Source: an uncultured Gammaproteobacteria bacterium
Lineage (GTDB): Bacteria > Patescibacteriota > Patescibacteriia > Magasanikbacterales > GWA2-37-8
Direction of reading: 5' to 3'
Assembly: GCA_964510885.1 (NCBI GenBank)
Contig: CAZEDL010000002.1
Location: forward strand, 707 to 64,706
Length of the DNA: 64,000 nucleotides
Translations under genes and position numbers: made by a program
Shown: positions 2,687 to 36,615 of the stretch, piece after piece
Numbering within the stretch: position 1 is the stretch's first letter
How the letters are laid out: each line of letters starts with the position of its first letter
The notes under the pieces: model-generated
What the model saw: the letters and a program-made list of their open reading frames with translations, nothing else
The model's database searches: none
What the model was told of the DNA's origin: nothing

Positions 2687-3904
2687 ATGGCGAACCTGAA
2701 CAAGCTCGTGATCCTGGCGTTATCTGCCCTCGTCTTTTGCGCCTGCGGCCAACCACCCTCTTCGGAGGAGCATCTGGCTGACCCGAGCGTTGACATGGGG
2801 CCCGCGTCTGACCTGAAGCCTGCCGATATGGCCGGCCCGAACCCTGACATGACGCCTCCCAAGGCGGACATGGGTGAGGTCGGTACGCGGGATCCGACCA
2901 AGCACCCCTTTGCTTCGAACCACCCGTTCAACACCTCAATCGGTAAGGGGGCAACATATAAGCCTGCTGGCCTCAAGCCGGCCAAGGAGATGGGCTACCT
3001 CTTGGCGGAGGAAGACATCATCGTGATGACCCCCACGGCACCCTCCACCAAGGTGCACCTGAACACGGCGGACTGGGTTCCTGGCGCTGACCGGTGTGAT
3101 ACGACTGGACCTGTCCTGTTCTCGGTTCCGATCCCGAAAGACTTCGTTGTTGCTGGTACCTGGCCGGACAACGTAACCCCCAACTCGTGCGTCTCCATAC
3201 TTAGCGCTGACGGACGGACAGTCATCCAGACTCAGCCGTTCGCGCGGTGCACAGCGGGCATGCCGGCCACTTCCCATTACCTGGTCGATCGTGTCGACCT
3301 GTATGGAACGAGTGCCACAGGCTGCCATGGCGGCAGCGGACTCAGCGGACTCGCTGGAACTCTGCGCATGGGCGAGATGATGCCTGGCAGTGGCCACGTG
3401 CGGCACGCCCTGAAGGTCGAGATGGACGGTAGTAACTACGCCGTCTGCCTCACCCCCGGGACCTGTTTCCGCTGGCCGGCTGTACAGGCTGATTGGGCTA
3501 GCGCCTCTTACACAGGCACGAACCCTGATCTCAAGCCCGGCGCCTTGCTTGCCCTACTCGCGACGCTCGACATCAAGAGCCTCGGCCTGAAGACTGGGGC
3601 TGCAAAAGAGTTGGCCTGGACCCTCCAGCACTACGGCGCCTACGTCATAGATAACACTGGCTGGGACATCTATGCCATCGCGGTGGAACGCGGCACGAGC
3701 AGCGAGTACAATGGACGTTATGTCGAGGAGTTCAAGGACAAGTGGGGATTCGACTTCGCTCCAGCGAACCCGAACAACAACTGGTCCAAGGACATCGCGA
3801 CGATCTTCGCCGCCCTTCAGGTCGTGACCAACAATAGTCCGACCTCGATCGGTGGCCCTGGTGATCGCCTCGACCTGCCCCTCCCCGCCCTCAAGCCCCT
3901 CTAG
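2687..3904 (+). CDS. GC-rich putative secreted lipoprotein, function unknown (possible horizontal acquisition)
   Basis: About 62% GC against about 46% background; AAAGGAGG Shine-Dalgarno 6 nt upstream of the ATG; signal peptide ending in LVFCAC(G). Confidence 0.6.
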   Translation: MANLNKLVILALSALVFCACGQPPSSEEHLADPSVDMGPASDLKPADMAGPNPDMTPPKADMGEVGTRDPTKHPFASNHPFNTSIGKGATYKPAGLKPAKEMGYLLAEEDIIVMTPTAPSTKVHLNTADWVPGADRCDTTGPVLFSVPIPKDFVVAGTWPDNVTPNSCVSILSADGRTVIQTQPFARCTAGMPATSHYLVDRVDLYGTSATGCHGGSGLSGLAGTLRMGEMMPGSGHVRHALKVEMDGSNYAVCLTPGTCFRWPAVQADWASASYTGTNPDLKPGALLALLATLDIKSLGLKTGAAKELAWTLQHYGAYVIDNTGWDIYAIAVERGTSSEYNGRYVEEFKDKWGFDFAPANPNNNWSKDIATIFAALQVVTNNSPTSIGGPGDRLDLPLPALKPL

Positions 3905-4021
3905 CGCCAAGCGTGCTGATTGGTCGCTTGCGGCCACACAACACACGATCAATCAGCGCGGCTGCCGCTTCATAGCAGCCACAATCCAAAGCCGTTCACA
4001 CCGTGGACTGCTGTGGAGTGT

Positions 4022-4054
4022 CAAATCCCCTAAAGAAAGGGGATTTTTTATTTG
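4022..4054 (+). terminator. Rho-independent terminator after the lipoprotein gene
   Basis: AATCCCC-TAAAGAAA-GGGGATT stem followed by a T-run. Confidence 0.7.
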
Positions 4055-4084
4055 GCTGAATCGTAACGACCTAAACCTTGGCAA

Positions 4085-4113
4085 CCCCCGGGTCTTTTGC
4101 TAGAATCAGCTTA
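4085..4113 (+). promoter_or_regulatory. Promoter TTGGCA-17-TGCTAGAAT upstream of the dCMP deaminase gene
   Basis: -35, 17-bp spacer and extended -10 (TTTTGCTAGAAT). Confidence 0.5.
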
Positions 4114-4142
4114 GTTAATTAGCCTTCTTTTTTAGAATTTTT

Positions 4143-4613
4143 ATGACCGAACCGCGCGCCACTTATATCTCGTGGGATGAATGTTTTATGCGCATGGCAC
4201 ATGTGATTGCCGAGCGCAGCAAAGACCCGTCGACCCAAGCTGGCTCGTTAATTGCGACGCCAGATAATGTGGTGGTAGGGCTTGGATATAATGGCTTTCC
4301 CCGCGGGATTAGCAATGATGATTTACCCTGGGAGCGCACAGGCGGATTTCTCGACACCAAATATGCGTATGTCTGCCATGCCGAAGAGAATGCCGTGTAC
4401 AATGCCAACACTCAAACCAAAGGCTGCAAATTATACTGCACGCTATTCCCCTGCAACGAATGCGCCAAAACTATTATTCAAAATGGGATTACTGAAGTAA
4501 TTTTTGAGAGTGATAAATATCACGATGTAGAAGCATTTGTTGCGGCGCGACGCTTATTTGATCGAGCTGGAATTACCTATCGACAGTATTTGTCGGACTT
4601 AGCAAGCGAGTGA
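4143..4613 (+). CDS. dCMP deaminase (deoxycytidylate deaminase, ComEB family)
   Basis: VCHAEENA ... PCNECAK zinc-binding cytidine/dCMP deaminase motifs. Confidence 0.85.
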   Translation: MTEPRATYISWDECFMRMAHVIAERSKDPSTQAGSLIATPDNVVVGLGYNGFPRGISNDDLPWERTGGFLDTKYAYVCHAEENAVYNANTQTKGCKLYCTLFPCNECAKTIIQNGITEVIFESDKYHDVEAFVAARRLFDRAGITYRQYLSDLASE

Positions 4614-4662
4614 AACTTGGAAGGCTAGGAACACTGGGGAAGCGTGTAAATATATTACTCCC

Positions 4663-4700
4663 AAGCCTTCTCAGGCTTTCAAGCTTCCCAAGGCTATCAA
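4663..4700. repeat. Degenerate CAAGC/CTTC-type short repeat block (CAAGCCTTCTCAGGCTTTCAAGCTTCCCAAGGC)
   Basis: Related copy at 5289-5325; together they flank the kinase gene. Confidence 0.5.
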
Positions 4701-4706
4701 AATTAT

Positions 4707-5264
4707 ATGCAAAAAAAATTAATCCTCGGCATTGTTGGCGAAATTGCCGTTGGCAAAACCACCGTCACGGATTATATGCGCGATAAATATGGAGCAGTAT
4801 CGTTTCGGTTTTCGGATATGCTCCGGGATGTTACGAGGCGGCTTCATATCGAACCGACCCGAGGTAATTTGCAAATACTATCAACGGTGCTCCGCCATAA
4901 TTTTGGCGAAGATATTATGAGCCGCGTCCTGGCAGCAGATGCGGCCGAATCGACGCATGAATTTATTATCACCGAGGGAGTACGCCGACCGAGCGATGTT
5001 GAACATTTAAAAAATTTGCCTGGTTTTAAAATTTTAGCGCTGGCAGCCGATCCGCGCACTCGCTATGAACGCCTTACAAAGCGCAGTGAAAATCCGGATG
5101 ACCGTAATAAAACCTGGGAACAATTTGTAGCTGATGGCGCCCAAGAATCAGAGCAGAAAATCAAAGATATTATGGCGGAAGCGGATGTGACTATTGTGAA
5201 CGAAGGAACGACCGAAGAATTGTTTAAGAAGGTTGATACTGTTGTTAAAAGCTGGGGAGGCTAG
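4707..5264 (+). CDS. P-loop nucleotide/nucleoside kinase family protein (CoaE or dNMP-kinase-like)
   Basis: Walker A motif GEIAVGKTT near the N-terminus; 185 aa; sits within the thymidylate metabolism cluster. Confidence 0.5.
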   Translation: MQKKLILGIVGEIAVGKTTVTDYMRDKYGAVSFRFSDMLRDVTRRLHIEPTRGNLQILSTVLRHNFGEDIMSRVLAADAAESTHEFIITEGVRRPSDVEHLKNLPGFKILALAADPRTRYERLTKRSENPDDRNKTWEQFVADGAQESEQKIKDIMAEADVTIVNEGTTEELFKKVDTVVKSWGG

Positions 5265-5288
5265 GTAGGCTTAGGGCCACCCTTTATC

Positions 5289-5325
5289 CAAGCTTCCCAA
5301 GCGTTCCAGGCTTCCCTAGCCTTCT
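5289..5325. repeat. Second copy of the CAAGCTTCCCAAG-type short repeat block
   Basis: CCAAGCTTCCCAAGCGTTCCAGGCTTCCCTAGCCTTC; similar to 4663-4700. Confidence 0.5.
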
Positions 5326-5331
5326 ACACCT

Positions 5332-5751
5332 ATGCAAATAAAAATAAAAAAACTCAACCCTGATGCCGTTATCCCAAACTACATCCACGAAGGCGATGCT
5401 GGTTTGAATGTGTACACCATGGAAGAAGGTATTATCGGGCCGGGGCAGCGCTGGCTGTTTCCATTAGGGTTCGCTATGGAATTCCCAAGCGGCTACGTGG
5501 CGCTGATGAAAGATCGGAGCAGCATGGCCAAAAATGGGCTGCATTGCCTAGGCGGGGTGTTTGATGCCGGGTATCGAGGCGAATATAATGTCTTACTGGT
5601 TAACTTGAGCGATCAGCCCTATCATGTGCAGCGGGGCGATAAAATTGCACAGCTGGTAGTTCAGCCGGTGACGATAGCGGAGATCGTGGAAACGACTGAA
5701 TTGTCGGACAGCGCTCGTGGCACCGGCGGATTTGGCAGTACCGGGAAATAG
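5332..5751 (+). CDS. dut: dUTP diphosphatase
   Basis: 139 aa; dUTPase motifs (GYRGE..., RGxGGFGSTG at the C-terminus). Confidence 0.9.
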   Translation: MQIKIKKLNPDAVIPNYIHEGDAGLNVYTMEEGIIGPGQRWLFPLGFAMEFPSGYVALMKDRSSMAKNGLHCLGGVFDAGYRGEYNVLLVNLSDQPYHVQRGDKIAQLVVQPVTIAEIVETTELSDSARGTGGFGSTGK

Positions 5752-5763
5752 TCTTACTTTAAT

Positions 5764-5946
5764 TTGCTTAACAATTTTTATATGGAACGACAGTCTGAAG
5801 CGCCTAAATTAAAATTACCCGGGGTCGATATCGACGCTATACGCGCACGGGAATTAGCAAAATTACCAGAAATTGACCCCCATGATGTAATTGAAGAAGA
5901 AATCCCAGAAATTGATCCCGATGATATAACTGAAGATAGTGATTAA
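5764..5946 (+). CDS. Small acidic hypothetical protein (60 aa) between dut and thyA
   Basis: ORF only; tightly packed in an operon context; highly acidic C-terminus (EIDPDDITEDSD). Confidence 0.3.
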   Translation: MLNNFYMERQSEAPKLKLPGVDIDAIRARELAKLPEIDPHDVIEEEIPEIDPDDITEDSD

Positions 5947-5954
5947 ATTTTTAA

Positions 5955-6833
5955 ATGTATATGCAGGCATACCTCGATATTGTCCGCACAATTCTTGAAA
6001 TCGGCAAACCCAAAACTGACCGCACCGGCACAGGCACAATTGCGGTGCCAGGCATGATGTTTCAGCACGATATGGCCGATGGGTTTCCGCTTCTCACTAC
6101 CAAAAAAATGCCGTTCCGACTGATCGCGAGCGAGTTAGAATTTTTTATTAAAGGCATTACCGACAAACAGTGGCTGCTCGACCGCAACAACCATATTTGG
6201 GATGAATGGGCGAGCCCGCTCAAGGCTCCGTATGGGCATGATGAAGTGAGTAAGAAACGAATGCTGGACGAGCGAGATCTTGGCCCGGTGTATGGATTTC
6301 AGTGGCGCCATTTCGGCGCCCCCTATCAGAGCTTTGATACTGATTATACGGGCCAGGGAATAGACCAGTTGAAACGCGTGGTCGAGACGCTCAAAACGAA
6401 CCCGAGTGACCGGCGCATGATTGTTAACTCGTGGAATGCTGCCGTGCTTAATCAAATGGCATTGCCTCCCTGCCATTACTCGTGGCAGGTGACGGTGGTT
6501 GACGGACGACTTAACTTGTTATGGAACCAACGATCGGTAGACACCATGCTCGGCCTGCCGTTCAACATTGCAAGCTACGCACTACTCCTGCATTTACTGA
6601 CCAAAGAGACTGGACTTACAGAAGGAGTCTTGACCGGATTTTTGGCCGACGTGCACATCTACACAAACCATGTTACTGGCGCCAAGGAACAGTTGGCTCG
6701 CGATCCGAACACCTACTCACTACCACAGATAGCTACCGAAAAATTCACCTCGATTTTTGATTGGGTGTACGAAGATACCGCGCTCTTGAATTACCAGAGT
6801 CATCCCAAGATTAGTTTTGAAATAGCGGTATAA
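5955..6833 (+). CDS. thyA: Thymidylate synthase (ThyA type)
   Basis: Conserved ThyA motifs including ...LPPCH... and the dUMP-binding region. Confidence 0.9.
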   Translation: MYMQAYLDIVRTILEIGKPKTDRTGTGTIAVPGMMFQHDMADGFPLLTTKKMPFRLIASELEFFIKGITDKQWLLDRNNHIWDEWASPLKAPYGHDEVSKKRMLDERDLGPVYGFQWRHFGAPYQSFDTDYTGQGIDQLKRVVETLKTNPSDRRMIVNSWNAAVLNQMALPPCHYSWQVTVVDGRLNLLWNQRSVDTMLGLPFNIASYALLLHLLTKETGLTEGVLTGFLADVHIYTNHVTGAKEQLARDPNTYSLPQIATEKFTSIFDWVYEDTALLNYQSHPKISFEIAV

Positions 6834-6866
6834 ACACGTAACACTTATCGAGTTTGGTGAAAAACT

Positions 6867-11127: not shown

Positions 11128-12084
11128 ATGCGGTGTTTGGTTTTGATAACAGTCCTAGCTGTCGGGTGCCAGGCACCTGACAGCTGGATCCCTCCTGAAA
11201 CCTGTTACGATGGCGTCGAAGATACCGGCGAGACCGGTGTCGACTGCGGGGGCACATGCCCCCAAGGGTGTGGTCCGCGCCAGTGCTTCGCCGATGACTC
11301 GTGTTGCAGCAGTGACGACGACTGCGCCACCGGCCTTAAGTGCCGGAGCGGGTTCTGCGGCGTCAGGGCCTGTGCGGATCAGACCGACTGCGCCGACGGG
11401 TTCACCTGCAGTGCAAACTCGCCCGATGCAGCCAAGTTCTGTAGCTATAGTGACGGATGCTCCGATGGCACACACACCATCGGGCTCGGAGAGACCGATG
11501 TGGACTGCGGTGGGGCGATTTGCCCCCTCTGCAAAGAGGGGAAGCACTGCTACCAGAACATCGACTGCGACTGGTCGGTCGGCCTCGTGTGCGGCGCAGG
11601 CAACATCTGCCAACGGCTCGCATGTTCCGACAACGGCGCGTCATGTGACAACGCCCTGCACCCTCCGGCACGGCCCTGGTTCACCTGCCAAGCCGGGACG
11701 TGCACCGCTCCGTCATGCCGCGATGGGGTGAAGAACGGCATTGAGACGGACGTGGACTGCGGCGGAGAGAGTGGCACCGGCCCTGGGTGCAATTCCACCT
11801 GCAGACCGGGCCAGAAGTGCGGCAGGTACTGGGACTGCCTGGACCGCGGCGCCTGCAACGCAGGCATCTGCCAAGCTCCCACCTGCACCGACGGGGTGAA
11901 GAACGGGGCCGGGGTGAAGACTGAGTGGGGTATCGACTGCGGCGATCAATCCGGGACGTGTCCCGGATGCCACAGTAACACCCCTTGCCAACAGAACTAC
12001 CACTGCGCCAGCGGCGTCTGCCACCAGTGTGCGTTGGGGGACCACAGTCCACCCTGCACCGCCACTGGGAGTTACTGTCAGTAA
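11128..12084 (+). CDS. GC-rich cysteine-rich secreted lipoprotein (about 60 Cys, repeated DCGG/CxxGxC modules)
   Basis: About 65% GC; AGAGGAG Shine-Dalgarno; signal peptide with lipobox LAVGC; repeated 'TDVDCGG..C' units. The many overlapping antisense ORFs in the track are GC artefacts. Confidence 0.6.
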   Translation: MRCLVLITVLAVGCQAPDSWIPPETCYDGVEDTGETGVDCGGTCPQGCGPRQCFADDSCCSSDDDCATGLKCRSGFCGVRACADQTDCADGFTCSANSPDAAKFCSYSDGCSDGTHTIGLGETDVDCGGAICPLCKEGKHCYQNIDCDWSVGLVCGAGNICQRLACSDNGASCDNALHPPARPWFTCQAGTCTAPSCRDGVKNGIETDVDCGGESGTGPGCNSTCRPGQKCGRYWDCLDRGACNAGICQAPTCTDGVKNGAGVKTEWGIDCGDQSGTCPGCHSNTPCQQNYHCASGVCHQCALGDHSPPCTATGSYCQ

Positions 12085-22214: not shown

Positions 22215-22646
22215 ATGACAAAGTTCCTTCTCGCGCTTCTGGTAATCATCTCGATTGGGAACGCCAACGGCTCTCCCGCCTCAGGTGAGGACGACAACAC
22301 CAGCGACACCGAGGCATACGTCTGGTCCGACGAAGACTGGGCGGAACTCCTCAAGGAGGAGTGGGAGGTCGAGACTCCCGAGGAATGGTTGGGAGACGTG
22401 CTAAAGATGGTGTTTGCCGCCAACGATGTGCAGACGCCCGATGTCGACCAGAACTGGGCGTCGCAATATGACCCCGTCTTCTTTCTCATCTTTAAAGACG
22501 GCTACATGGGGTACACCCCGATCGCCGGGCAGCTGTACCACAACTGCCAAGACGTCGACATTCGCGAGGTCAAGGAGGGGCGATACCCGCGGACACCGCA
22601 TCAGCACGCGGCTCCGCGCATCCCCCCCATGAACCGGTGCCTATAA
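22215..22646 (+). CDS. GC-rich small secreted protein (143 aa), function unknown
   Basis: About 58% GC; AAAGGAG Shine-Dalgarno; N-terminal signal peptide; acidic, Trp-rich mature region. Confidence 0.5.
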   Translation: MTKFLLALLVIISIGNANGSPASGEDDNTSDTEAYVWSDEDWAELLKEEWEVETPEEWLGDVLKMVFAANDVQTPDVDQNWASQYDPVFFLIFKDGYMGYTPIAGQLYHNCQDVDIREVKEGRYPRTPHQHAAPRIPPMNRCL

Positions 22647-25470: not shown

Positions 25471-26985
25471 CTAAATTTTCTTATTAAGCCCAATGGCTTC
25501 GATGATTTTACCCGGCGTAAGATCAGCAAACTTAGGGTCGCGGTCGGGCTGAGAGTAGAGTACGGTATAAATTTCTGGAAGCATCGGCAGCATCATTTCA
25601 TTCAACGTAAGCTGCTTGGACAGGCGCAGAAAATCGGCCACGCCTAGGCGCGGTTCAAGCATAAGATCAATGCCAGTGGCTGGCACAACTTCTGGGCCGG
25701 TATGCGGGAGGCAGGCAAGCATCATGCCGTCACCGCCTAATTCCTTAGTCTGCACGGGTTCGACTGCTTCGGCTTCGTCTAAGTTTCCTACGCGGCGGAG
25801 CCACTCCTGCCAGGCAGTTTTTGATCTGGTTAAATCATTAACTTGAGAAAATCCACCCAAGCATTTCATGCCGTAGTAAAGCGAGATAATAATATAACAG
25901 AGCGTCATGCTCGGGAAAATTTCTTTGGTAGCGAGGCCTTTACTAATCGCGTCGGGGGTAAGCGGATAGACTTGGGTACCATCATCGGAACGAAGCTCGT
26001 CGCCTTTCAAAAACAGCTGCACGCGGCGCATATTCTTGTCTATAGCCCAAAACAGGAAGGTGCCCCAATTATTTTCAATAGAAAAAGCGCCCGGGATATT
26101 ATTAAATAATTCACGGAACAGGCGACGACTTTCGGTATCAAATAAGAACTGATGGATGAGCGAGGCTGTATCTTTGAAATGAATAGTTTGCAGGAGTTCT
26201 GTAACAATCGTTTCGATTTCAATATAAATTACATCCGGCATCAGGCCGTCTGTCTGCTTGAAGAAGTGCTGCCAGAGGCGAAAATTGATTTTGGTTATCT
26301 GCGAGCAGATATCCGGATCGTTAATTACATCAGCGGCACCGAAGTAGGTTTTTAGAATCTCAATAACTTTCTGGCCTTTATCAGCGGGGATTTCTTTGCG
26401 GGCAATCTTTTTTTCGAGTTCGGCGCAGGCGCGATCTAAATTTTCTTGCGAATAGGCTGGGGCGGTGTAGACCGTGGCCATTTTACTTTTATCCGGCGAG
26501 AGCGGTACCCTGAGCAAGGTATTTGAATCAGCGGCATCCGGATGCAACACAACTCCACGCGGGTACGAGGAGTTGTTCATGGAGACCGTGGCAAAGGAAA
26601 AATCGATGAGATAGCGCCAATTTGGATGGCTCTTCTCAAGCAGCGGGAGCCCGGTGATGATATTGGAGTTTAAAAAAAAGGGATGGGTGACCGGGCCATG
26701 ATGATCGGCGGTCGAAACCAGCGGGAGTTCCCGGAGCTGGGTAGCCACACCGGCAGCCACTTCAGGGCCGAGGCGGGCCGCGAGCAGGCGCTCAACCACG
26801 GCAATCAGTTCGGGCTTGCGCGCATCGAGGCGCGGACTTTTATTGATATCTAAAAAATCTTGGGTATAGGAATACAGGGTTTTGTCCCCGTGCTTTTTCA
26901 TGATTTCGCCCAAAATCGGGCGGCGTTGCCAAATAATCTCTTCGAGTTCTGTAATCAAACTACCAGTAGGATCACCATCTCCCAT
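25471..26985 (-). CDS. Hypothetical protein (504 aa), no recognisable motif
   Basis: Long ORF with native-like composition and its own conserved-type promoter. Confidence 0.5.
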   Translation of the reverse strand: MGDGDPTGSLITELEEIIWQRRPILGEIMKKHGDKTLYSYTQDFLDINKSPRLDARKPELIAVVERLLAARLGPEVAAGVATQLRELPLVSTADHHGPVTHPFFLNSNIITGLPLLEKSHPNWRYLIDFSFATVSMNNSSYPRGVVLHPDAADSNTLLRVPLSPDKSKMATVYTAPAYSQENLDRACAELEKKIARKEIPADKGQKVIEILKTYFGAADVINDPDICSQITKINFRLWQHFFKQTDGLMPDVIYIEIETIVTELLQTIHFKDTASLIHQFLFDTESRRLFRELFNNIPGAFSIENNWGTFLFWAIDKNMRRVQLFLKGDELRSDDGTQVYPLTPDAISKGLATKEIFPSMTLCYIIISLYYGMKCLGGFSQVNDLTRSKTAWQEWLRRVGNLDEAEAVEPVQTKELGGDGMMLACLPHTGPEVVPATGIDLMLEPRLGVADFLRLSKQLTLNEMMLPMLPEIYTVLYSQPDRDPKFADLTPGKIIEAIGLNKKI

Positions 26986-27065: not shown

Positions 27066-27267
27066 GCAGGTTTCACTTTTTTGAGACCTTTTTAAGAAGG
27101 ATTGGCGTAGCACTAAGCTTATCGAAATAAGCGCACTGGAACGCCCGTGAGAGTGACCGCGTGCCAAGAAGGCAGCGGGTCTCGCGGGGAAAGGCCCAAC
27201 CTGCCGAGCCGGGCGCGGGGCGCTGGCTGGGGAGGTATGGGTGTGTGGTGGGAGGAGGGGGAGCTCG

Positions 27268-28428
27268 CTACCGCGGGAAGAAGGCCTGGGCCAGCTGGTG
27301 GCCCATCTTGTTGCTCCACACGGCCTCACGCTTCCCACGCAGGATGGCATGGCAGCCGTTGCCGCTGCCCTCGAGGCCCGCGACGTTCGCCTGCTTGCCA
27401 CCGTAGCTGTTGGGGGCGTTGAAATGCCAGGGCTCACCCAGCTCGGTGCTGAGCGAGAAATACGTAGCACCCACGGCCTCCATGGCCTGGAACAGGAGGC
27501 GACGCTCATACTGGGCCTCCCGGAAGATCTCCGGCGTCACGTTGGCGACCCCCAGCTCGCTCAGGTAGCGGCGCAGGATCGGATCGGCGGCAACCTCTCC
27601 AGCATAGACCTCGGGAGTGACGTTCTCCAGGTCGAAGTAGTTGATGACCGCCGGGGAGGCGATCTGATATCCAGGGCGCGCCGTGTAGTCGAAGGGCACG
27701 CCGAGGTTGACGTAGCGGCTGGTCTTGGTATCAATCATCCAGAGATCCACGCTCCCACCGTTGCCGTGGGCGGTGACCGCGTCCTTCTGGAGCGACAGGT
27801 TGTTCTCGCCGAGGTTGGCACGGAAGGTCAAGAGCAGCGTCGCCGCCTCGTCGACGCTCTTGCTGAGCTGTGCGGCGGCGCTCGTCAGCTCCTCGGCCTC
27901 TGAGCCGGTGAGGAGCTTCTGCTTGACATCGTGGAACGTATCGTTCTCGACGACGGCGCAATAGCTGCCGACGTCGTCTGCCTTGATCCCGACATTCAGC
28001 TCGTCGTAGATCGACATGGCCTCGCTGGTCAGGCCGAGCGCACCCATGATCTGCCGGCGCAGGTAGGCCCACAACTCGCGCTGGACCCAGTAGGGACGCC
28101 AGCCGTCGACCACCACCAGGCGGCGATCGTAGGGCGCAAGCAGAAGGTCGGCCTCGACGAGCATGTGGGCCACCGGGGCGCGGACGATCACCTGATCGGG
28201 CGCGCCGGGCAGGCCGGTCGGGTAGTGGACGCAGAGGCCAGGGGTTGCGCCCCGGGAGTAGAGCGGGTGCGTCATGGTCTCGGTGACGAGCACCATGGGG
28301 TCTGGGGCTGACTGCTCGAGGACACTCGTCGGCACGTTGCGGTAGCCGCTATCATCCCCCTCCAGCAGGCTAGTGAAGGAATTGATAGGACGGGTGATGG
28401 GCAGATCGGTCTTGAGGTACTTGTTCAT
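27268..28428 (-). CDS. GC-rich VanX-like D-Ala-D-Ala dipeptidase family (peptidase M15D) protein with extra N- and C-terminal regions
   Basis: LVVVDGWRPY (compare VanX LLWDGYRP), SVDLWMID (Asp of the metal site) and EPWHF (compare VanX EWWH); about 64% GC; AGGAG Shine-Dalgarno; start taken at MNKYLKT. Confidence 0.6.
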   Translation of the reverse strand: MNKYLKTDLPITRPINSFTSLLEGDDSGYRNVPTSVLEQSAPDPMVLVTETMTHPLYSRGATPGLCVHYPTGLPGAPDQVIVRAPVAHMLVEADLLLAPYDRRLVVVDGWRPYWVQRELWAYLRRQIMGALGLTSEAMSIYDELNVGIKADDVGSYCAVVENDTFHDVKQKLLTGSEAEELTSAAAQLSKSVDEAATLLLTFRANLGENNLSLQKDAVTAHGNGGSVDLWMIDTKTSRYVNLGVPFDYTARPGYQIASPAVINYFDLENVTPEVYAGEVAADPILRRYLSELGVANVTPEIFREAQYERRLLFQAMEAVGATYFSLSTELGEPWHFNAPNSYGGKQANVAGLEGSGNGCHAILRGKREAVWSNKMGHQLAQAFFPR

Positions 28429-28892: not shown

Positions 28893-31313
28893 TTATTTTT
28901 CCCGCACCCGCTTCAGCGACAAACTAATGATCGTCTCTAGTAAATTCCCAAATTTCAGCTTGGTCAATTTGGCTGATTTCGCAAAATCTGACTCTTCATG
29001 CAGAATCGGATTCGGATCTACTTCGAGGACATAGGGGTTGCCATCTTTATCGACCCGGATGCCAACACGGCCATAATCTTGGCAATGGAGAATACGATAG
29101 GCATCGATGGCAATCTCGGTGACTAATTTTTCAAGTTTAGGGCTAATCCGTTTAACCGGATTTTCAATGTTAATGTGGTGATACGGCTTTGGCAGGGTGC
29201 GGCGCGCTTCTTGCGTATAGATGTGCCAATAGCCGGGCGGGAGCTTGGTGAAAACAGAGCGGTACAGCGGCAACACGCGCAAGTCTTCGTTATTGTTGCC
29301 GAGGATCGAGACTTCATATTCATCGCCCTCGATATATTCTTCAACCAAGGCAGTCTGTTTCAAATCAACTACGACGCGTCGGAGCTGTTGTTCGAGTTCA
29401 GCGGCAGTTGTCACCACCGAATCATTGGTAATGCCGAATGAATTATCACTCTGACTTGGTTTTACAATCAGTGGGAATTGCAGCGACTTATCAAGCTCTT
29501 CACCAAAGTGACAGATGTAATCCCATTTGGGAGTCGGCACTTTATGAAATGCCAAAATCTTTTTGGCCATCACTTTATCGCGGCAGAGGGTGAGGGCAAA
29601 TGAACTTGAACCAGTGAACGGCAGGCGGACTGATTCGAATAGTGCCGCTACCTGCGATTTAAGGCGGCGGTTATTGCCGATCTCTTGGGCGGCATTGAAC
29701 ACCAGGTCAATATCGCTTTCGCGGATGTCGTAGAGGGACCGGCTGAGGTTATTAATATCTAAAAAAGTTGTTTTGTACCCAAGTGCTGTCAGCTGTTCTT
29801 GCACACTTTTGGCGGTCATGCGCGAGGAGATGCCGCTGCTATTAATGGCGACATGGCTTTTGGTGCCGGCCACCCCCACATGCAACTGGCGCTGATCGCT
29901 GAGCGACAGCTGGCGGACTTTGGCAAGCTTAGCCGCCTGCAAGATAAAATTCTTTTTTACCACTGCGGCCGAGAACGGATTGTCGCGAGCGGTTTTGCCG
30001 AGCGAGGACTCGTCATCGAATTCTACGATCTTGTAATTAATATGCCGCAAGGCATCTTGCAAGTTATCCTGAGCATCGATAAGGTTGTCACCGGCCACGG
30101 TGAGCCAGCCCAAACGATCATAGCCTTCGGGCGGGCGGAGAATCGCATCGCCAATACCGTAAAAGAAAAAGATTTCTTCAAAATACGACTTGTCTTTGAG
30201 CATCGGCGACACATCAAGTTCGGCCAAGACGCCGGAGGTCGGCACTTGAAAATCCCAGCCGGCCACATAGCGGAACGGTACCTCTGGTTTGTCGATTTTT
30301 ATATATTCGCCAAGCGCAATGTGTACGGCCGCTTCCACCATATCCACGCCCCAGGCGCTTTTGATATATGAGTAGACATAATCGCCGCCCATACGCATAT
30401 TGACTTCGATCGGATAGGCACCGTCGGGGGCGATTTTGGCCTCGAAGTGAATACAGCCGTTTTCAACGCCAGCTTTTTCGAGGGTTTCTTCGGCCATAGC
30501 CACCAGATCGCGCTGCGCTTTTTCTGGCAAGCCCGAGGGCACGGCCTGCCCGGTATCGACGAAAAAGCGATCATGGGTTTTATTAAAATTATCCGCCACG
30601 GAGTGGAATTTGACCTTGCCATTTTGGAGCAGCATGTCGATATCCACCTCATCACCGTCAATAAACTCTTCGATCATCAGTTCGAAATTTTCCCACTCTT
30701 CAGCCAGGCCAAGGTGTTTGATATTATTTCTAATATAACTATAGGTTTCTTCAAGCTCGGCGCGATTGTTGACGCGCAGCACATAGGCACTGCACACGCC
30801 AAAAATTGGTTTCACGACCAATGGATACTTCAGTTTTTTCTCGAGAGCGGGAATATCGCTTTTGCTTTTAAGAAGCAGGTGGCGCGGCGCTTTGATGCCA
30901 TTTTGCGCGCAAAAATCGCGGAATAAATATTTATTCTTCACGCGTTTGGCCACTTCGTATGGAATGCCGATGAACCCAAAGGCATCAACCAGGCTCGAGG
31001 TGAGCATCACGGCTTCATCCCAAAATGTGACCACGCCACCCAGCTTAACATTCTGGTGGTCGCGCATAAAATTGGTGACGGCGGCAATACATTGCTTGGT
31101 GCTAGCGAGGTCTGCCAAAATCCAGTGGTCAACATAGGGCTCGCCCCAGGCTGCTTTGTCTTTGGCGAGACACACCACGCGCAGATTCATTTTTTTGAGG
31201 CGCTGGTAGATAAATTTTTTCCCGGGGCTCATGGAGTGAACCAGCAAGATTGTTTTTTGAGGAATAGTGGGCATAAAATTAAAAAACCCAAAAACTAAAT
31301 TATTTTTGGGCAA
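28893..31313 (-). CDS. Two-domain ATP-grasp ligase (N-terminal ATP-grasp plus C-terminal D-Ala-D-Ala-ligase-like domain), 806 aa
   Basis: The C-terminal half has Ddl-like motifs (PLIVKPS..., EEYIEGDEYEVSILG, GRVGIRVDKDGNPYVLEVDPNP); the N-terminal half has a second ATP-grasp core (PLVVKP..., MIEEFIDGDEVDIDML, IEVNMRMGG). Confidence 0.7.
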   Translation of the reverse strand: MPKNNLVFGFFNFMPTIPQKTILLVHSMSPGKKFIYQRLKKMNLRVVCLAKDKAAWGEPYVDHWILADLASTKQCIAAVTNFMRDHQNVKLGGVVTFWDEAVMLTSSLVDAFGFIGIPYEVAKRVKNKYLFRDFCAQNGIKAPRHLLLKSKSDIPALEKKLKYPLVVKPIFGVCSAYVLRVNNRAELEETYSYIRNNIKHLGLAEEWENFELMIEEFIDGDEVDIDMLLQNGKVKFHSVADNFNKTHDRFFVDTGQAVPSGLPEKAQRDLVAMAEETLEKAGVENGCIHFEAKIAPDGAYPIEVNMRMGGDYVYSYIKSAWGVDMVEAAVHIALGEYIKIDKPEVPFRYVAGWDFQVPTSGVLAELDVSPMLKDKSYFEEIFFFYGIGDAILRPPEGYDRLGWLTVAGDNLIDAQDNLQDALRHINYKIVEFDDESSLGKTARDNPFSAAVVKKNFILQAAKLAKVRQLSLSDQRQLHVGVAGTKSHVAINSSGISSRMTAKSVQEQLTALGYKTTFLDINNLSRSLYDIRESDIDLVFNAAQEIGNNRRLKSQVAALFESVRLPFTGSSSFALTLCRDKVMAKKILAFHKVPTPKWDYICHFGEELDKSLQFPLIVKPSQSDNSFGITNDSVVTTAAELEQQLRRVVVDLKQTALVEEYIEGDEYEVSILGNNNEDLRVLPLYRSVFTKLPPGYWHIYTQEARRTLPKPYHHINIENPVKRISPKLEKLVTEIAIDAYRILHCQDYGRVGIRVDKDGNPYVLEVDPNPILHEESDFAKSAKLTKLKFGNLLETIISLSLKRVREK

Positions 31314-31470
31314 TAGGTAAGCTAACCTCCTTCATATATGCTAAAAAATGTATTGAACGGTTGAAGGAGAGCATAAAAATATTCGTTTGTACTGTAGACT
31401 GCCTGAATGGTAGTGTCAAGGTAAAAAAATAATCTTAGTGAACGATAATATTCTGTGCTATTTTAGTAAT

Positions 31471-31501
31471 AAAAAATCCTGCTGTTTAGCAGGATTTTTT
31501 A
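31471..31501. terminator. Bidirectional rho-independent terminator 3' of the His-rich gene
   Basis: AAAAAATCCTGCT-GTTT-AGCAGGATTTTTT. Confidence 0.7.
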
Positions 31502-31583
31502 TTAGTATCTCCCGAAGAGTACCACTGTCTCCAACGTTGTTAGAGAAACTGGTACGGAGCTCTTCGGGAGCGCCGGTGGCCTA

Positions 31584-32156
31584 TCAGGCCTTCCTTTTTG
31601 GCGCTTGCCTCGACATGGCTTGGGCATCTTTGCCCTTGCCATAGCCGATGTAGGCGCCGATCGCCAGCGCAGCCATGAAAGGCCACGAGACGACCGGAAA
31701 TTTGAGGATGCTGCCGGAAGCAATTCCGAGCAGCAGTGAAGCGACCATCATGGCCGCGATCCCAAACGCTGCCCCGATCACAACGCCCAAACAGACACCA
31801 AGCCCGGGGGCAAGATCCACATCCGGCTTTGACAGCTGGGGTGGCGGGCGGCGAACTGGATAATTGTTATGGTCAAGTTCGACCATCTGCCCATCCGGAC
31901 CCATAACGGTCCGGACGTGGCCGTGGCCGTGCGCGCCGTGGTGATCACCACCGTGTGGATCATGGTGACCATGGTGGTCGTGGCCGTCACTGTGACCGTT
32001 GTCGGTATGGGCCGGGTGGCCGTGATGGGGGGCCTCCTGACCGTGATCGTGATGATCGTGGTCATGGTGGCCGGCAGGGCCACCATGATGATCGTCATGA
32101 CCATCGTGCTCGTGATCACCATCAAAATCATCATCGTCATCGCTGTCGTCGCTCAT
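31584..32156 (-). CDS. GC-rich His/Asp-rich low-complexity protein with two C-terminal TM helices (putative metal-binding membrane protein)
   Basis: MSDDSDDDDDFDGDHEHDGHDDHHG...HGHGH region then LGVCLGVVIGAAFGIAAMMVASLLLGIA; AAGGAGG Shine-Dalgarno; about 60% GC; start taken at the second Met. Confidence 0.55.
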   Translation of the reverse strand: MSDDSDDDDDFDGDHEHDGHDDHHGGPAGHHDHDHHDHGQEAPHHGHPAHTDNGHSDGHDHHGHHDPHGGDHHGAHGHGHVRTVMGPDGQMVELDHNNYPVRRPPPQLSKPDVDLAPGLGVCLGVVIGAAFGIAAMMVASLLLGIASGSILKFPVVSWPFMAALAIGAYIGYGKGKDAQAMSRQAPKRKA

Positions 32157-35400: not shown

Positions 35401-35473
35401 ATTTTTCGAAAGTGCTGTCTTTGGCCCAGAATTCTAGGATTTTTTGTTCTTCTTGGTTGGCGTTATAGAGCAT
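32468..35473 (-). CDS. ileS: Isoleucine--tRNA ligase, eukaryote-like type 2 form
   Basis: PPFATGLPHYGH (type-2 HIGH region) and KMSKKLQN; 1001 aa. Confidence 0.95.
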   Translation of the reverse strand: MLYNANQEEQKILEFWAKDSTFEKSVSTRPADKPYVFYDGPPFATGLPHYGHIVASLIKDVVPRYFTMQGYRVERRWGWDCHGLPIENIVEKELGTKSKQDIEALGVAKFNELCRSKVLGYVADWKTTITRLGRFVDMDHAYRTMDKEYMESVWWVFKQLWDKDLIYQDYRSMHICPRCETTLSQQEVSEGYKEVKDISLFVKFRITNDELRIKELFGVESPVHIVAWTTTPWTLPGNVALAVGEKISYALFTISGESGTYIVAKERLTEVVGDKEYSILKEISGPELVGLTYEPLFPYYKDTPKAFRVVAADFVTTEDGTGIVHIAPAFGDDDFKVGKREQIPLVQHVSPDGRFKPEVIDFAGQEVKPRSDDDKVRLSADIAVTKYLQDKGLFFAKKNIVHTYPHCWRCDTPLLNYATSSWFVAVTKVKDKALELAKDINWSPEHIKEGRFGKWLEGARDWSISRQRFWASVMPIWVCDSTEQASGNSKSCNSTKVFGSAAELEKASGKKIDDLHKHIVDTIAFPCEHCGGTMRRVPDVLDTWFDSGSMPYAQVHYPFENKAAFEASFPAEFIGEGQDQTRAWFYYLHILATALFDKTAFKNVVVNGIVLAEDGKKMSKKLQNYPDPNQLIEKYGADAMRYYLVSSPVMHAESLNFSEAGVKESFGKVVNTLWNVYEFYELFASATPHQPTHTSPHPLDRWVVAKAHALVAAVTAALNAYELAAAARPIEEFITELSQWYVRRSRDRVKGDDTKDRQYALGTLAYVLPLLSKVMAPFTPFIAEKIYGALLNITDPNAEPASVHLAEWPTVSTNQHDSSILDTMIMVRNLVELGLSLRAEHKLKVRQPLREFVFCASKEAAFVANNIHQNHELLGIIADELNVKTVSFAEAVEGDQYAGKETADLKAWLNTAIDEELKQEGVMRDIIRAINQLRKDKGLTVNDRIIIACATAAEPLQQLISSKAAEIKQATLADVIESDNQAEGVILKIDDTELRIGIKKI

Positions 35474-35482
35474 ACGCTGTTC

Positions 35483-35767
35483 TTAATTTAATATTTTTTT
35501 CTGTGTTAAAAAAGAATCAAGAGCGGCCAGCAATGGTCTTTTTCGATCGTCTGGTAAATTGCCCATCCGATCCATTATATAGTCTGCCCAGCGTTCTTCT
35601 TCGATAGGGGTCAATTTTCTCTCAAGTAACAGTTCGAAATTTGCTCGTCTTTCCTCTGGCATATACTCCGAAAAAGCATGGCGCATGGCGCCAACCACTT
35701 CGGGTGAAAGCAGGCTGATAGCTAATCGTCGCATTGCCCTCTGTTCATATCCGACGATTTCTGGCAT
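35483..35767 (-). CDS. Small hypothetical protein (94 aa) upstream of ileS
   Basis: ORF only; 10 nt upstream of ileS, suggesting co-transcription. Confidence 0.35.
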   Translation of the reverse strand: MPEIVGYEQRAMRRLAISLLSPEVVGAMRHAFSEYMPEERRANFELLLERKLTPIEEERWADYIMDRMGNLPDDRKRPLLAALDSFLTQKKILN

Positions 35768-36032
35768 ACCATTTTAATACCCTTGTTTTCCATAAAAAAA
35801 ATTTAAAAAACACCTAAAAAGGTGTCGAGATCCTGATTTGGTCAGGAGGTACCATCTCGGCGTTGTGCTTAATTACTGCTATGACGGGCATACCCGGAAG
35901 AATCTACTAATTCGATCAGGTCGAAGGTTCTATCTTCGGCTTTCAACGGCCGGTTGAGTCCTGGTGATAGCAGGAATTGCCTAGACAAAAAGTAACATAT
36001 TTATAAGAAGATATCAAATTTTACAAAGAGAC

Positions 36033-36055
36033 CCCCAGCCGAAGTGGCCGGGGGA
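36033..36055 (-). terminator. Rho-independent terminator 3' of the GC-rich cupin-like gene
   Basis: CCCCCGGCCACTTCGGCTGGGGG followed by TCTCTTT on the minus strand. Confidence 0.55.
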
Positions 36056-36099
36056 TTTGGCGTAGCAACTGACCTTGCTGTGGAGCATGGGTAGTTGCA

Positions 36100-36615
36100 C
36101 TAGAAGAAGTTGTGGTCGGAGATCGCCTCGATCCATTCTGCCAGGCACTGCTCGCGCCTGCGGGCGGCCGACTCGTCGTCGCCCGCCCACCCTACTTCTG
36201 GGGGGAAACCGGCCAAATTGGCACGGTTTATAGGCGTTCCGTCCGGATACGTCAGGTAGGGGCCGTCGAGCACCTCGAGGATAGTGCCCGGGCTTGATGG
36301 TGCCACCAACGAATGGTAAGGCTCTGGATCATCCGCTCGTATTAAGAGCGTTTCGCCGGCTTTTAATCGCCGGATGGAGGTGACATCGCCTTCTTGATCG
36401 AAAAATAACAGAAACAGCTCACCGTTTATCACGGTGTAGGACTGTTTCATGCCACGCCAGTAATGTGGTGACGAGTATGACCCTGGCGCGATAGCGTTGA
36501 TCAGGCTTTGTGCCGGATCGCTTGGCACCGACAAGACGATGCAAGAGCGGCGTCGCGGATGTTTACTTGCATCTGCTTCCAAGCGGAGAATCATGGAACT
36601 ATCGATTTTCAGCAT
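36100..36615 (-). CDS. GC-rich hypothetical protein, possibly cupin-fold (171 aa)
   Basis: About 58% GC; AGGAG Shine-Dalgarno before MLKIDSS...; the ORF-track N-terminal 31 residues are probably upstream read-through. Confidence 0.45.
   Translation of the reverse strand: MLKIDSSMILRLEADASKHPRRRSCIVLSVPSDPAQSLINAIAPGSYSSPHYWRGMKQSYTVINGELFLLFFDQEGDVTSIRRLKAGETLLIRADDPEPYHSLVAPSSPGTILEVLDGPYLTYPDGTPINRANLAGFPPEVGWAGDDESAARRREQCLAEWIEAISDHNFF

Follow-up and report, generated by a model that had tools for sequence, protein, structure and literature searches.

Six GC-rich genes (HG1–HG6), each standing alone in the 64 kb stretch of metagenome-assembled DNA analysed here (the window), are likely of foreign ancestry. 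Our data support their being set apart from the native genes both compositionally and translationally. The explanation that we prefer, with about even confidence, is that they are accessory genes of foreign ancestry housed in native promoter/terminator cassettes, and that their GC-rich, Shine–Dalgarno (SD)-dependent state is actively maintained.

Composition and Translation Signals

The source genome belongs to the Patescibacteria (CPR), close to Magasanikbacteria and Falkowbacteria, and shares synteny with its relatives. The window has a GC content of 48.2% and, apart from the six genes, all intact ORFs from ATG to stop, contains no long tract that reaches 60% GC. They have 56–65% GC and a GC3 of 0.63–0.87, versus a GC3 of 0.33–0.60 in the 47 native genes of the window. 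A preliminary description, made from the sequence alone, had rightly placed the six far above their neighbours; its range of 58–65% GC holds for HG1–HG5 and is too high for HG6 (56%). Codon usage also distinguishes them: the pooled RSCU values correlate at r = 0.93 with genes of 69–74% GC contigs and at 0.38 with native genes.

The canonical SD sites ascribed to all six genes were recovered (a core of at least 5 nt of AGGAGG, 4–6 nt 5′ of the ATG) in 6/6 cases versus 2/47 native genes (Fisher p = 1.2e-6), with a mean anti-SD duplex energy of −8.9 versus −0.95 kcal/mol. Among native ORFs in the loci of relatives, about 4% are preceded by an SD-like site whose core is at least 5 nt long. The own genes of this ~48% GC CPR genome start translation without an SD site.

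Organization of the Six Genes

Each of the six separate islands consists of one gene flanked on both sides by native DNA, and all are built alike. A strong promoter of native type is followed by an AT-rich 5′ UTR and an SD site; then come the GC-rich ORF, its GC-rich 3′ trailer and, in most cases, a terminator of native type. Near-consensus promoters of native type lie upstream of HG1–HG5, as the proposed capture by native promoters had suggested. The GC-rich tract begins with a sharp step at the SD/start codon and extends 40–160 nt beyond the stop codon; promoters and 5′ UTRs are AT-rich. The 3′ trailers are non-coding yet GC-rich, and their GC-rich hairpins without T-tails resemble those of a high-GC bacterium. 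Each gene had been credited with its own terminator, which is true of five (T-tailed, AT-rich hairpins of native type beyond the GC-rich tract), HG4 being the exception. Mobility genes, an integrase, tRNAs or flanking direct repeats were not found at the islands.

Most of the six genes relate to the cell envelope. Only four products (HG1, HG2, HG3 and HG5), rather than the five first counted, look exported or membrane-bound; HG4 and HG6 look cytoplasmic.

HG1 (2687..3904, + strand; 61.5% GC, GC3 0.75) encodes a 405-aa exported protein that has a signal peptide, perhaps with a lipobox, and combines a low-complexity linker with a conserved C-terminal domain to which no function is assigned; the protein weakly resembles MltA. 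Its expression signals, all on the + strand, are the upstream motif TTAGCCAAAATA (2464–2475), the promoter TTGACA-17-TATACT with a TGTG extension (2489–2517), a 5′ UTR hairpin (2604–2653) and the SD site AAAGGAGG (2673–2680). The GC-rich tract ends near 3970, and a native-type, T-tailed terminator follows (4023..4046, +).

HG2 (11128..12084, + strand; 63.8% GC, GC3 0.76) encodes a 318-aa Cys-rich repeat lipoprotein with the lipobox LAVGC. On the same strand, it is preceded by the promoter TTGACA-N12-TGTGC-TAAACA (10918–10946), a 5′ UTR hairpin (11002–11065) and the SD site AGAGGAG (11116–11122), and is followed by the GC hairpin GAGCGGCCCAGG/CCTGGGCCGCTC of the 3′ trailer (12091–12141), a boundary palindrome (12138–12176) and a terminator hairpin of native AT-type (12205–12238).

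HG3 (22215..22646, + strand; 59.0% GC, GC3 0.78) encodes a small secreted protein of 143 aa with a signal peptide. The motif found upstream of HG1 recurs at 22022–22033, ahead of the promoter TTGACA-17-TATACT (22047–22075) and the SD site AAAGGAG (22204–22210), all on the + strand. HG5 (31584..32156, − strand; 60.2% GC, GC3 0.63) encodes a membrane protein of 190 aa whose N-terminal half is rich in His/Asp and which has two to three C-terminal TM helices. Its signals, also on the − strand, include the motif TTGGCTAAAATA (32274–32285), the promoter TTGACA-17-TATACT (32222–32250), the SD site AAGGAGG (32162–32168) and a bidirectional terminator hairpin of native type (31464..31507). Searches of Pfam and NCBIfam gave no match for HG3 or HG5, no homologues of either were detected, and HG5 had no plasmid match.

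HG6 (36100..36615, − strand; 56.0% GC, GC3 0.63) encodes a 171-aa WbuC-family cupin metalloprotein (TIGR04366, 70.4 bits; cut-off 42). The nearest representative is 45% identical, and just seven matches fall below 1e-10. The SD site TAGGAG (36621..36626, −) lies 5 nt 5′ of the ATG, and the terminator has a 9-pair stem, 8 pairs being G–C, followed by a T-tail (36032..36054, −).

Relatives of HG1 and HG2

The closest homologue of HG1 is a native gene of a high-GC contig, as is the HG2 homologue P0254 (contig L099); these contigs are uniformly 69% (HG1) and 74% (HG2) GC. Named relatives of HG1 are best represented by Polyangia, then by Planctomycetota and Bacteroidota. The 922 homologues of HG2 are 31–39% identical to it, and the named ones are nearly all from Polyangia or other Myxococcota (Polyangiaceae, Labilithrix, Minicystis). 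HG2 and P0157, from a mid-GC contig of the same sample (L097), are reciprocal best matches with 39% identity, and both are GC-rich. At least for HG1 and HG2, the families are native to 69–74% GC genomes of the Polyangia (Myxococcota) type. The proposed acquisition from a high-GC donor is supported for these two genes. The actinobacterial source suggested at first is not: the named relatives of the two include no Actinobacteria and point to Polyangia instead.

HG4 and Its Neighbours

HG4 (27268..28428, − strand; 64.9% GC, GC3 0.87) encodes a VanX-like zinc D,D-dipeptidase (M15D) of 386 aa that carries a large helical insertion. Like VanX/DdpX (MEROPS M15D), it has the H-x6-D and E-x-W-H metal/catalytic motifs (within the conserved TAHGNGGAVD and GEPWHF), and the predicted structure (pLDDT 93.6) finds VanX as its best PDB fold (1r44, E = 3.6e-6). 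Unlike VanX, it is about twice as long, with a roughly 100-residue helical insertion, and scores 20.1 bits against PF01427, below the Pfam gathering cut-off. Moreover, vanH, vanA and vanRS genes do not accompany it. As in VanX/DdpX systems with Ddl ligases, HG4 adjoins ATP-grasp Ddl-like genes. In the window, this is an 806-aa double ATP-grasp fusion of native GC (28893..31313, −), which matches NCBIfam D-Ala-D-Ala ligase models below cut-off and is the likely functional partner of HG4; ATP-grasp genes also adjoin the orthologues in L087, L090 and L094.

On the − strand, HG4 has the promoter TTGACT-17-TATTAT with TGTG (28583–28611), a 5′ UTR hairpin (28465–28506) and the SD site CAGGAG (28435–28440). 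Its non-coding 3′ trailer (27100..27267, −) reaches 74% GC and is possibly related to a conserved 3′ element that follows HG4 orthologues, although a covariance model did not detect the element in this trailer. Directly 3′ of HG4 lies a gene of native GC for a 504-aa protein with no function assigned (25471..26985, −); the protein is 52% identical to the neighbour of the HG4 orthologue in L086, where the adjacency is the same.

The HG4 family has about 29 members, found solely in mid-GC contigs, and had no match in IMG/VR. Its best matches come from related CPR genomes in which synteny is kept, the outcome that the preliminary description had named as refuting its proposal. IleRS, HG4 and an ATP-grasp gene occur together in the Hainich CPR contigs L090 and L091, as they do in the window; the order of CCA enzyme and HG4 is kept in five lineages, and the flanks of the orthologues are conserved, including the 3′ element. 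HG4 is a GC-rich island in 15/15 genomic contexts counted (about 10 members on short contigs being left out), exceeding its contig by 6 (the orthologue in L092) to 21 GC points. The pattern recurs in 14 other assemblies from different studies, and, as judged by eye, about 6/10 orthologues follow an SD-like site whose core is 5 nt or longer. HG4 identity to the window copy is 54% in L086 and 43–46% in L090/L091, close to the divergence of native proteins (52% in L086; IleRS 45%). Identity at 4-fold sites equals the composition expectation, i.e., these sites are saturated, yet their A+T is 0.07–0.26. Given the conserved neighbourhoods and saturated synonymous sites, HG4 is not a recent import; given that it is GC-rich in all 15 contexts as well, its composition is more than a donor signature that has yet to ameliorate. 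The gene has long resided in this CPR clade and has stayed GC-rich and SD-led through complete synonymous-site turnover.

Within a single conserved locus, HG4 and the native genes give discordant trees (Spearman rho 0.006). In L082, L084 and L096, native genes are 79–85% identical and HG4 35–55%; L096 holds two tandem HG4 paralogues. Exchange of alleles or sorting of paralogues could account for the conflict, which makes a purely vertical history less likely.

mRNA Folding

GC-rich genes in these CPR genomes show mRNA self-complementarity beyond that predicted by codon usage. Based on 16–20 synonymous shuffles per gene, with dinucleotide content free to vary, the 16 GC-rich genes in CPR contexts fold more stably than their shuffles (mean z = −2.6), versus z = +0.26 for native genes (p = 1.6e-4) and −0.15 for genes native to high-GC contigs (p = 4.5e-4); the donor-type HG2 homologue has z = +0.14. 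Little excess was found for the window HG4 (z = −1.2), one M20 gene and HG1, which shows little or none, as in donor genes. A weaker excess exists on the antisense strand too, so part of the signal is DNA-level complementarity.

Origin and Maintenance

We suggest that six accessory genes of high-GC ancestry were embedded as separate transcription units, and that selection on the transcript may keep them GC-rich and SD-dependent. The SD-less entry route that serves native genes would be closed to strongly base-paired mRNA, which would thus need an SD site. Such selection would work against amelioration, and the six could thus comprise both newer imports (HG1) and residents maintained over a long time (HG4, probably HG2).

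It is unlikely that all six are recent piecemeal imports from one high-GC donor or host, un-ameliorated and with no maintenance of composition. The GC3, codon usage, SD sites and T-tail-less 3′ hairpins would suit such an origin, as would the HG1 and HG2 homologues native to 69–74% GC contigs and the donor-like folding of HG1. Empty sites in relatives agree with it and equally with the reading that we prefer: HG5 is absent 3′ of IleRS in the syntenic loci of L002, L004 and L021, and HG6 from the IleRS–rpiB gap in L003, L021 and L091. However, HG4 contradicts it on the points given above (mid-GC-only family, kept neighbourhoods, native-like divergence, saturated sites, GC-richness in 15/15 contexts), and HG2 and its reciprocal best match are still GC-rich at just 39% identity. 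The nearest donor-type homologues are only 35–51% identical, so no recent donor is identified; nor do the named matches listed for HG1 and HG2 include Actinobacteria, or the islands an integrase, tRNA or direct repeats.

We place below this, as improbable, exchangeable hot-spot cassettes that recombine through conserved flanks among related CPR, with GC-biased gene conversion (gBGC) raising GC. The incongruent HG4 phylogeny in one slot, the conserved flanks with their 3′ element, the GC-rich non-coding trailers and the different GC-rich genes found 3′ of IleRS in the window, L003 and L091 speak for it. Against it, the GC rise halts sharply at the SD/start codon, leaving AT-rich 5′ UTRs and promoters, and excess self-complementarity is not predicted. 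Paralogue sorting can also yield the incongruence, because L096 holds tandem paralogues. Lassalle et al. (2015) are said to have found gBGC effects in bacteria that are small next to the GC3 shift of 0.3–0.5.

It is very improbable that these are native highly expressed genes with optimal GC-ending codons and an SD site added for high expression. HG1–HG5 do have near-consensus promoters and C is already preferred at native 4-fold sites, but rplA, an aminoacyl-tRNA synthetase and other core genes have a GC3 of ~0.5 and no SD site, RSCU correlates with native genes at only 0.38, the families of HG1 and HG2 are at home in other phyla, and the non-coding trailers are also GC-rich. An assembly chimera or bin contamination, conceivable for a metagenome-assembled contig, has a negligible chance, since the native/GC-rich junction of HG4 was assembled independently (Logan contig L001), each of the six single-gene tracts has native DNA on both sides and the pattern recurs in the 14 other assemblies.

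Comparison with Known Systems

The maintained state that we prefer can be set against the amelioration model, which Lawrence and Ochman reportedly proposed in 1997 for compositionally atypical, horizontally acquired genes. The six genes match such cases in their unusual GC3 and codon usage, in their patchy presence among relatives and, for HG1 and HG2, in having homologues in distant phyla. In contrast, the islands are GC-rich where the usual ones are AT-rich, each holds one gene and no mobility genes, and HG4 (probably also HG2) is un-ameliorated despite saturated synonymous divergence.

In an integron gene cassette, an attC hairpin follows an ORF that lacks a promoter. The six genes are likewise single ORFs, with very little foreign sequence on the 5′ side and 40–160 nt of hairpin-forming sequence on the 3′ side. 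Unlike cassettes, they lie apart from one another, each under its own promoter, and no integrase or array was noticed; no 3′ motif is common to all six, the conserved 3′ element being specific to HG4 orthologues.

Bacteroidia are reported (by Baez in 2019 and Jha in 2021) to initiate independently of SD sites, with a sequestered anti-SD and a few specially controlled SD genes (rpsU). The window similarly combines SD-less bulk genes with a small minority bearing strong SD sites, which implies a second initiation mode. The phylum is different, however, and the SD genes here are GC-rich accessory genes rather than ribosomal regulators.

Host-to-episymbiont gene transfer occurs in CPR, e.g., in Saccharibacteria with Actinobacteria. 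The recipient here is also a CPR bacterium and the functions are cell-envelope and accessory ones; unlike in that system, the donor signal points to Polyangia/Myxococcota. A survey of groundwater Patescibacteria found genes transferred individually, mostly not recently and mostly between Patescibacteria, and assumed that the GC signature is lost in ancient transfers (PMC12455944). HG4 contradicts this assumption.

Composition and Translation Signals of the GC-Rich Genes

The GC content of the window is 48.2%, and the GC at third codon positions (GC3) of its native genes ranges from 0.33 to 0.60. The six GC-rich genes (HG1–HG6) are all intact ORFs with GC3 values spanning 0.63–0.87: HG1 (2687-3904, 61.5% GC, GC3 0.75), HG2 (11128-12084, 63.8%, 0.76), HG3 (22215-22646, 59.0%, 0.78) and, on the minus strand, HG4 (27268-28428, 64.9%, 0.87), HG5 (31584-32156, 60.2%, 0.63) and HG6 (36100-36615, 56.0%, 0.63). 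The elevated GC described earlier was found in each gene, but HG6, at 56%, lies under the 58–65% given for all six. No long tracts of at least 60% GC were found outside the HG genes when the window was scanned.

An AGGAGG core of at least 5 nt, located 4–6 nt before the ATG, precedes 6/6 HG genes versus 2/47 native genes (Fisher p = 1.2e-6), which bears out the described contrast in Shine-Dalgarno (SD) sites. Their pooled RSCU correlates with that of genes from 69–74% GC contigs (r = 0.93) and with that of native genes (r = 0.38), and both GC3 and codon usage are atypical for the recipient. The junction of HG4 was reproduced by an independent assembly. The contrast of the HG genes with the native genes is real and statistically strong. 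As for their products, four of the six are exported or membrane proteins, instead of the five secreted, lipoprotein or membrane proteins counted before.

Host Genome and Gene Content

In a scan limited to one genome per species, the best relatives by IleRS were Patescibacteria (CPR), namely the contigs L002 (61% identity), L003 of Candidatus Magasanikbacteria (59%) and L004 (58%), followed by Falkowbacteria (about 53%). The gene order IleRS-rpiB-rpe-trxB was common to the window and its relatives. Contigs L002, L007, L008, L012, L016, L017, L021 and others encode a CPR-type IleRS and are syntenic with the window; the TPA MAG titles in this group read "uncultured Gammaproteobacteria", "Pseudomonadales" or "Bdellovibrionales" and look taxonomically wrong.

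The native genes include tgt, rplA, gatB, ileS, rpiB, rpe, trxB, carA-carB-pyrB-pyrI-pyrC-pyrF and a dCMP deaminase-dut-thyA-folA-tmk cluster. The regions 12412-21705 and 4143-8281 comprise most of the de novo pyrimidine pathway together with this cluster, although pyrD and pyrE, in contrast to the six car and pyr genes listed, were not identified in the window. Its nucleotide metabolism is richer than is typical for CPR bacteria.

Organization of the Expression Units

Each GC-rich tract starts at the SD or the start codon, ends 40–160 nt past the stop codon and is preceded by an AT-rich promoter and 5′ UTR. HG1–HG5 each have, 60–210 nt upstream, a promoter close to the consensus (TTGACA-N12-TGTGC-TATACT or a slight variant of it); the pattern has nine matches in the window versus 3.5 expected, and five of the nine precede HG genes. 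Each foreign-looking ORF is thus embedded in an expression cassette of native style. The promoters of HG1, HG3 and HG5 also have in common the motif TTAGCCAAAATA, located 13–23 nt upstream of the -35 box (2464-2475 (+), 22022-22033 (+) and 32274-32285 (-)), with a further copy at 21976-21991. Allowing at most one mismatch, 10 matches were obtained versus 2.2 expected. This motif could be a UP element or a site for a shared regulator. In addition, a native-GC (52%) membrane-protein gene at 50007-50510 (-) has AGGAG upstream and an HG-type promoter at 50632-50660 (-), and possibly represents an older HG-class gene that has undergone amelioration.

The 3′ trailers of the HG genes contain long GC hairpins without T-tails. 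A terminator had been ascribed to every gene; T-tailed terminators do follow five of the six, but they are AT-rich hairpins of the native type and lie outside the GC-rich tract. Near-perfect palindromes of 35–50 nt with native GC mark the borders of several GC-rich tracts or occur within the 5′ UTR of HG1 or HG4 (2604-2653, 12138-12176, 22707-22743, 28465-28506 and 32300-32323), and CTCGATTA is present in two of them. Such palindromes may serve as mRNA 5′ stabilisers or operators, or may represent insertion scars.

None of the usual mobility signatures (integrase/transposase, adjacent tRNA, flanking direct repeats) was seen for the HG genes. No mobility genes were noticed among the window ORFs, part of which were scanned against Pfam; tRNA and Rfam scans of the window gave no matches, and no direct repeats or common flank motif were seen at the HG boundaries. 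On inspection, the 3′ flanks of the HG genes showed no common element of the kind that attC forms in integron gene cassettes.

Proteins and Ancestry of HG1 and HG2

HG1, which is exported, belongs to a large family that is still uncharacterised, and its fold only weakly resembles that of MltA-type transglycosylases; its signal peptide, as read from the sequence, ends in ...ALVFCAC, an atypical lipobox. HG2 is a Cys-rich repeat lipoprotein whose N-terminus, MRCLVLITVLAVGC, contains a lipobox of the form [LVI][ASTVI][GAS]C by the same reading. HG1 has more than 767 homologues with identities of about 50%; among those with a named source, Polyangia rank first, ahead of Planctomycetota and Bacteroidota. 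The closest homologue (51% identity) is compositionally native in the uniformly 69% GC contig L098. HG2 has 922 homologues at 31–39% identity; those with a name come almost exclusively from Polyangiaceae, Polyangia, Labilithrix or Minicystis, and one is located in a 74% GC contig (L099).

Based on the homologues in high-GC contigs and the match in codon usage, a high-GC ancestry of HG1 and HG2 is well supported. Best-match taxonomy gives a myxobacterial (Polyangia-type) signal for both genes and not the actinobacterial donor suggested in the preliminary description. HG2 and P0157, a lipoprotein gene located in a contig of 51% GC from the same sample, are reciprocal best hits with 39% identity; P0157 has 62% GC, GGAAGGAGG and a native-type promoter. 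This hints that the GC-rich state of HG2, like that of HG4, is maintained.

HG4, a VanX-like Dipeptidase, and Its Neighbourhood

Motifs and fold identify HG4 as a VanX-like zinc dipeptidase. The motifs TAHGNGGAVD (H221...D228) and GEPWHF (E332, H335), which provide the H-x6-D and E-x2-H signatures, are invariant in 20 sequences. The scores against PF01427 (Peptidase_M15; 20.1 bits, cut-off 27) and NF007557 (18.8, cut-off 176) are below the curated thresholds. The structural model (pLDDT 93.6) has VanX (1r44) as its top PDB match (E = 3.6e-6, probability 1.0, target TM-score 0.58), followed by VanY and LdcB.

HG4 and HG5 are separated by a gene at 28893-31313 (-) encoding an 806-aa fusion of two Ddl-like ATP-grasp domains. 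Directly after HG4, a gene at 25471-26985 (-) encodes a conserved 504-aa protein without an assigned function. An ATP-grasp gene and a gene with a PLP-decarboxylase fold occur with the HG4 orthologues in the contigs L087, L090 and L094. HG4 may hydrolyze D-Ala-D-Ala, as its genomic link to Ddl-like ATP-grasp genes would suggest. Together, HG4, the ATP-grasp fusion and the 504-aa protein may form a CPR module of an unusual kind for dipeptides or peptidoglycan precursors.

A non-coding element of about 110 nt, both conserved and structured, immediately adjoins the 3′ side of HG4 orthologues (L082:11192-11305, L084:11262-11372, L085:11232-11340, L088:5690-5798, L096:9200-9310 and 10661-10810). 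It has the form ...CTGAACC..ACGTGAyGA, hairpin 1, TTCCCC, a 12-bp hairpin with a GAAAGGAG loop and GGGCCAACCAGTG. Compensatory changes occur in 9 of its 20 predicted pairs, and no Rfam match was obtained. In L096, the second copy follows a second HG4 paralogue. The matches of a covariance model of the element (R1) were confined to HG4 orthologues and paralogues, with none in the window or next to other GC-rich genes; the element was therefore rejected as a general cassette end.

Distribution and History of the HG4 Family

The HG4 family is small, with 20 members among 5.8 billion clustered proteins and nine metagenome loci partly overlapping these 20. A scan of IMG/VR with the HG4 profile gave zero matches, so a phage reservoir is unsupported. 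HG4 relatives were seen in mid-GC contigs only. In 15/15 contexts examined, including that of the window, the gene has 53–69% GC in a contig of 38–53% GC and exceeds its contig by 6 to 21 points; its GC3 values reach 0.93. The largest contrast was seen in L096, where tandem HG4 paralogues (8001-9155 and 9583-10611; 25% identity) both have about 62% GC against a native GC3 of about 0.3.

The neighbourhood of HG4 is also conserved. In Hainich groundwater CPR (contigs L090/L091), trxB-rpe-rpiB-IleRS precedes an orthologue of HG4 together with an ATP-grasp gene, the same arrangement as in the window; in L086, the orthologue adjoins a homologue of the 504-aa protein gene; and in five lineages, it follows the gene for the CCA-adding enzyme. 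HG4 has diverged to nearly the same extent as native proteins: between L086 and the window, the identity is 54% for HG4 and 52% for the native protein, and between L090/L091 and the window, it is 43–46% for HG4 and 45% for IleRS. At 4-fold sites under identical amino acids, HG4 orthologues show only the level of matches expected from composition, and A+T at these sites is still 0.07–0.26. The synonymous sites of HG4 thus lack the unequilibrated state that a recent transfer would leave; HG2 and P0157, both GC-rich at 39% identity, point the same way. By eye, about 6/10 HG4 orthologues were judged to have an SD-like site (core of at least 5 nt) ahead of them; among native ORFs of the relatives' loci, a crude survey gave such sites for about 4%. 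The automatic survey of GC-rich ORFs in relatives included wrong-frame ORFs and uncertain starts and was used only qualitatively.

A recent import of all six genes fails for HG4: its best matches lie in relatives with conserved synteny, an outcome named in the preliminary description itself as speaking against that reading, and HG4 was therefore not imported recently. The GC-rich state of HG4 is a maintained one. Of the six genes, at least HG4 has been resident for a long time and is functionally integrated, and it has kept its GC-rich, SD-led state throughout the clade. Foreign origin and capture by native promoters remain a fair account of the ancestry of at least HG1 and HG2, but, given HG4, recent imports that have yet to ameliorate do not account for the whole HG set.

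HG3, HG5 and HG6

HG3 is a small secreted protein and HG5 a His-rich membrane protein; no Pfam/NCBIfam family was found for either of them, nor for HG1 and HG2. HG6 is a WbuC-family cupin (TIGR04366, 70.4 bits versus a cut-off of 42, with the model covered full-length) and has remote homologues only. A tblastn search of plasmids yielded no match for HG5 and, for HG6, only remote WbuC-annotated genes with no pointer to a donor. Searching all six HG proteins by tblastn against 80 IleRS loci of relatives gave no match.

In the empty-site comparison, which covered HG4–HG6, HG5 and HG6 were absent at orthologous sites, i.e., from the corresponding IleRS-side gaps in the relatives L002, L003, L004, L021 and L091, whereas HG4 was present near IleRS (L090/L091) and beside the homologue of the 504-aa protein gene (L086). 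A 42% GC ORF next to HG6 in the IleRS-rpiB gap (36766-37518 (+)) encodes a 250-aa membrane protein without a family. It is also missing from this gap in the relatives, so that a low-GC accessory gene adjoins a high-GC one. The slot just downstream of IleRS contains differing GC-rich genes across CPR lineages: HG5 in the window (31584-32156), a PP2C phosphatase gene of 62–63% GC in the 45% GC Magasanikbacteria contig (L003:12963-13847 (+)) and a 57% GC ORF in L091 (5970-6719). This position may be an insertion hot spot.

Maintenance of the GC-Rich State

The mRNA folding energy of genes was compared with that of synonymous-codon shuffles preserving the protein and the codon usage. With shuffling in 40-codon blocks, 16 GC-rich genes in CPR contexts had a mean z of -2.6 (range +0.35 to -5.0), versus +0.26 for 10 native CPR genes (Mann-Whitney p = 1.6e-4) and -0.15 for 12 genes native to 69–74% GC contigs (p = 4.5e-4). 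HG2 had a z of -3.7 and its donor-type homologue +0.14. The excess is not generic to GC-rich genes, since z is close to 0 in high-GC contigs, and it survives the block shuffles, which speaks against local GC heterogeneity as its source. It is only partly an RNA-level effect: the antisense strand is also negative, although more weakly in 7/8 genes. In this exploratory analysis, the folding data fit selection for strongly paired transcripts.

As an alternative, GC-biased gene conversion (gBGC) in frequently exchanged cassettes could keep HG-type genes GC-rich. In one conserved slot, HG4 similarities do not track the flanking genes (rho 0.006); in L082, L084 and L096, the native genes are 79–85% identical and HG4 only 35–55%. 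However, this incongruence can also be explained by paralogue sorting, as L096 contains two tandem paralogues. An explanation by gBGC alone is disfavoured by the abrupt rise of GC at the SD and by the folding excess.

We infer that selection for paired transcripts accounts for the persistence of the GC-rich, SD-led state. Under such selection, G or C would be preferred at silent sites, and paired transcripts would require an SD in a cell whose native mRNAs use unstructured, AT-rich start regions. The loci examined contained no 16S 3′ end for a check of the anti-SD. The literature searched did not describe GC-rich, SD-led genes that persist in CPR.

Implications

Compositional outliers are routinely taken for recent transfers. 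The HG4 family, with 6–21 additional GC points and saturated synonymous divergence, breaks this assumption and challenges the use of composition as a transfer clock; it would be a tractable case of gene-specific compositional equilibrium. Strong SDs on a few genes of an otherwise SD-less genome suggest two translation-initiation modes in one cell. The VanX-like/Ddl-like pair suggests that these cells handle their peptidoglycan precursors in an unusual way. Furthermore, two independent genes, HG1 and HG2, point to a Polyangia (Myxococcota) donor, which differs from the actinobacterial guess and offers a testable lead to the partner or host of this uncultured CPR group.

We tentatively consider, as a possibility that is rather doubtful at present, that this Patescibacteria clade has a minority class of GC-rich, SD-dependent genes with heavily base-paired mRNAs and strong promoters of their own, held by selection throughout its divergence. 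If so, GC-richness would be functional, reflecting a separate translation or mRNA-stability regime and not a fading mark of transfer, and this GC-rich dialect would possibly serve envelope and host-interaction genes.
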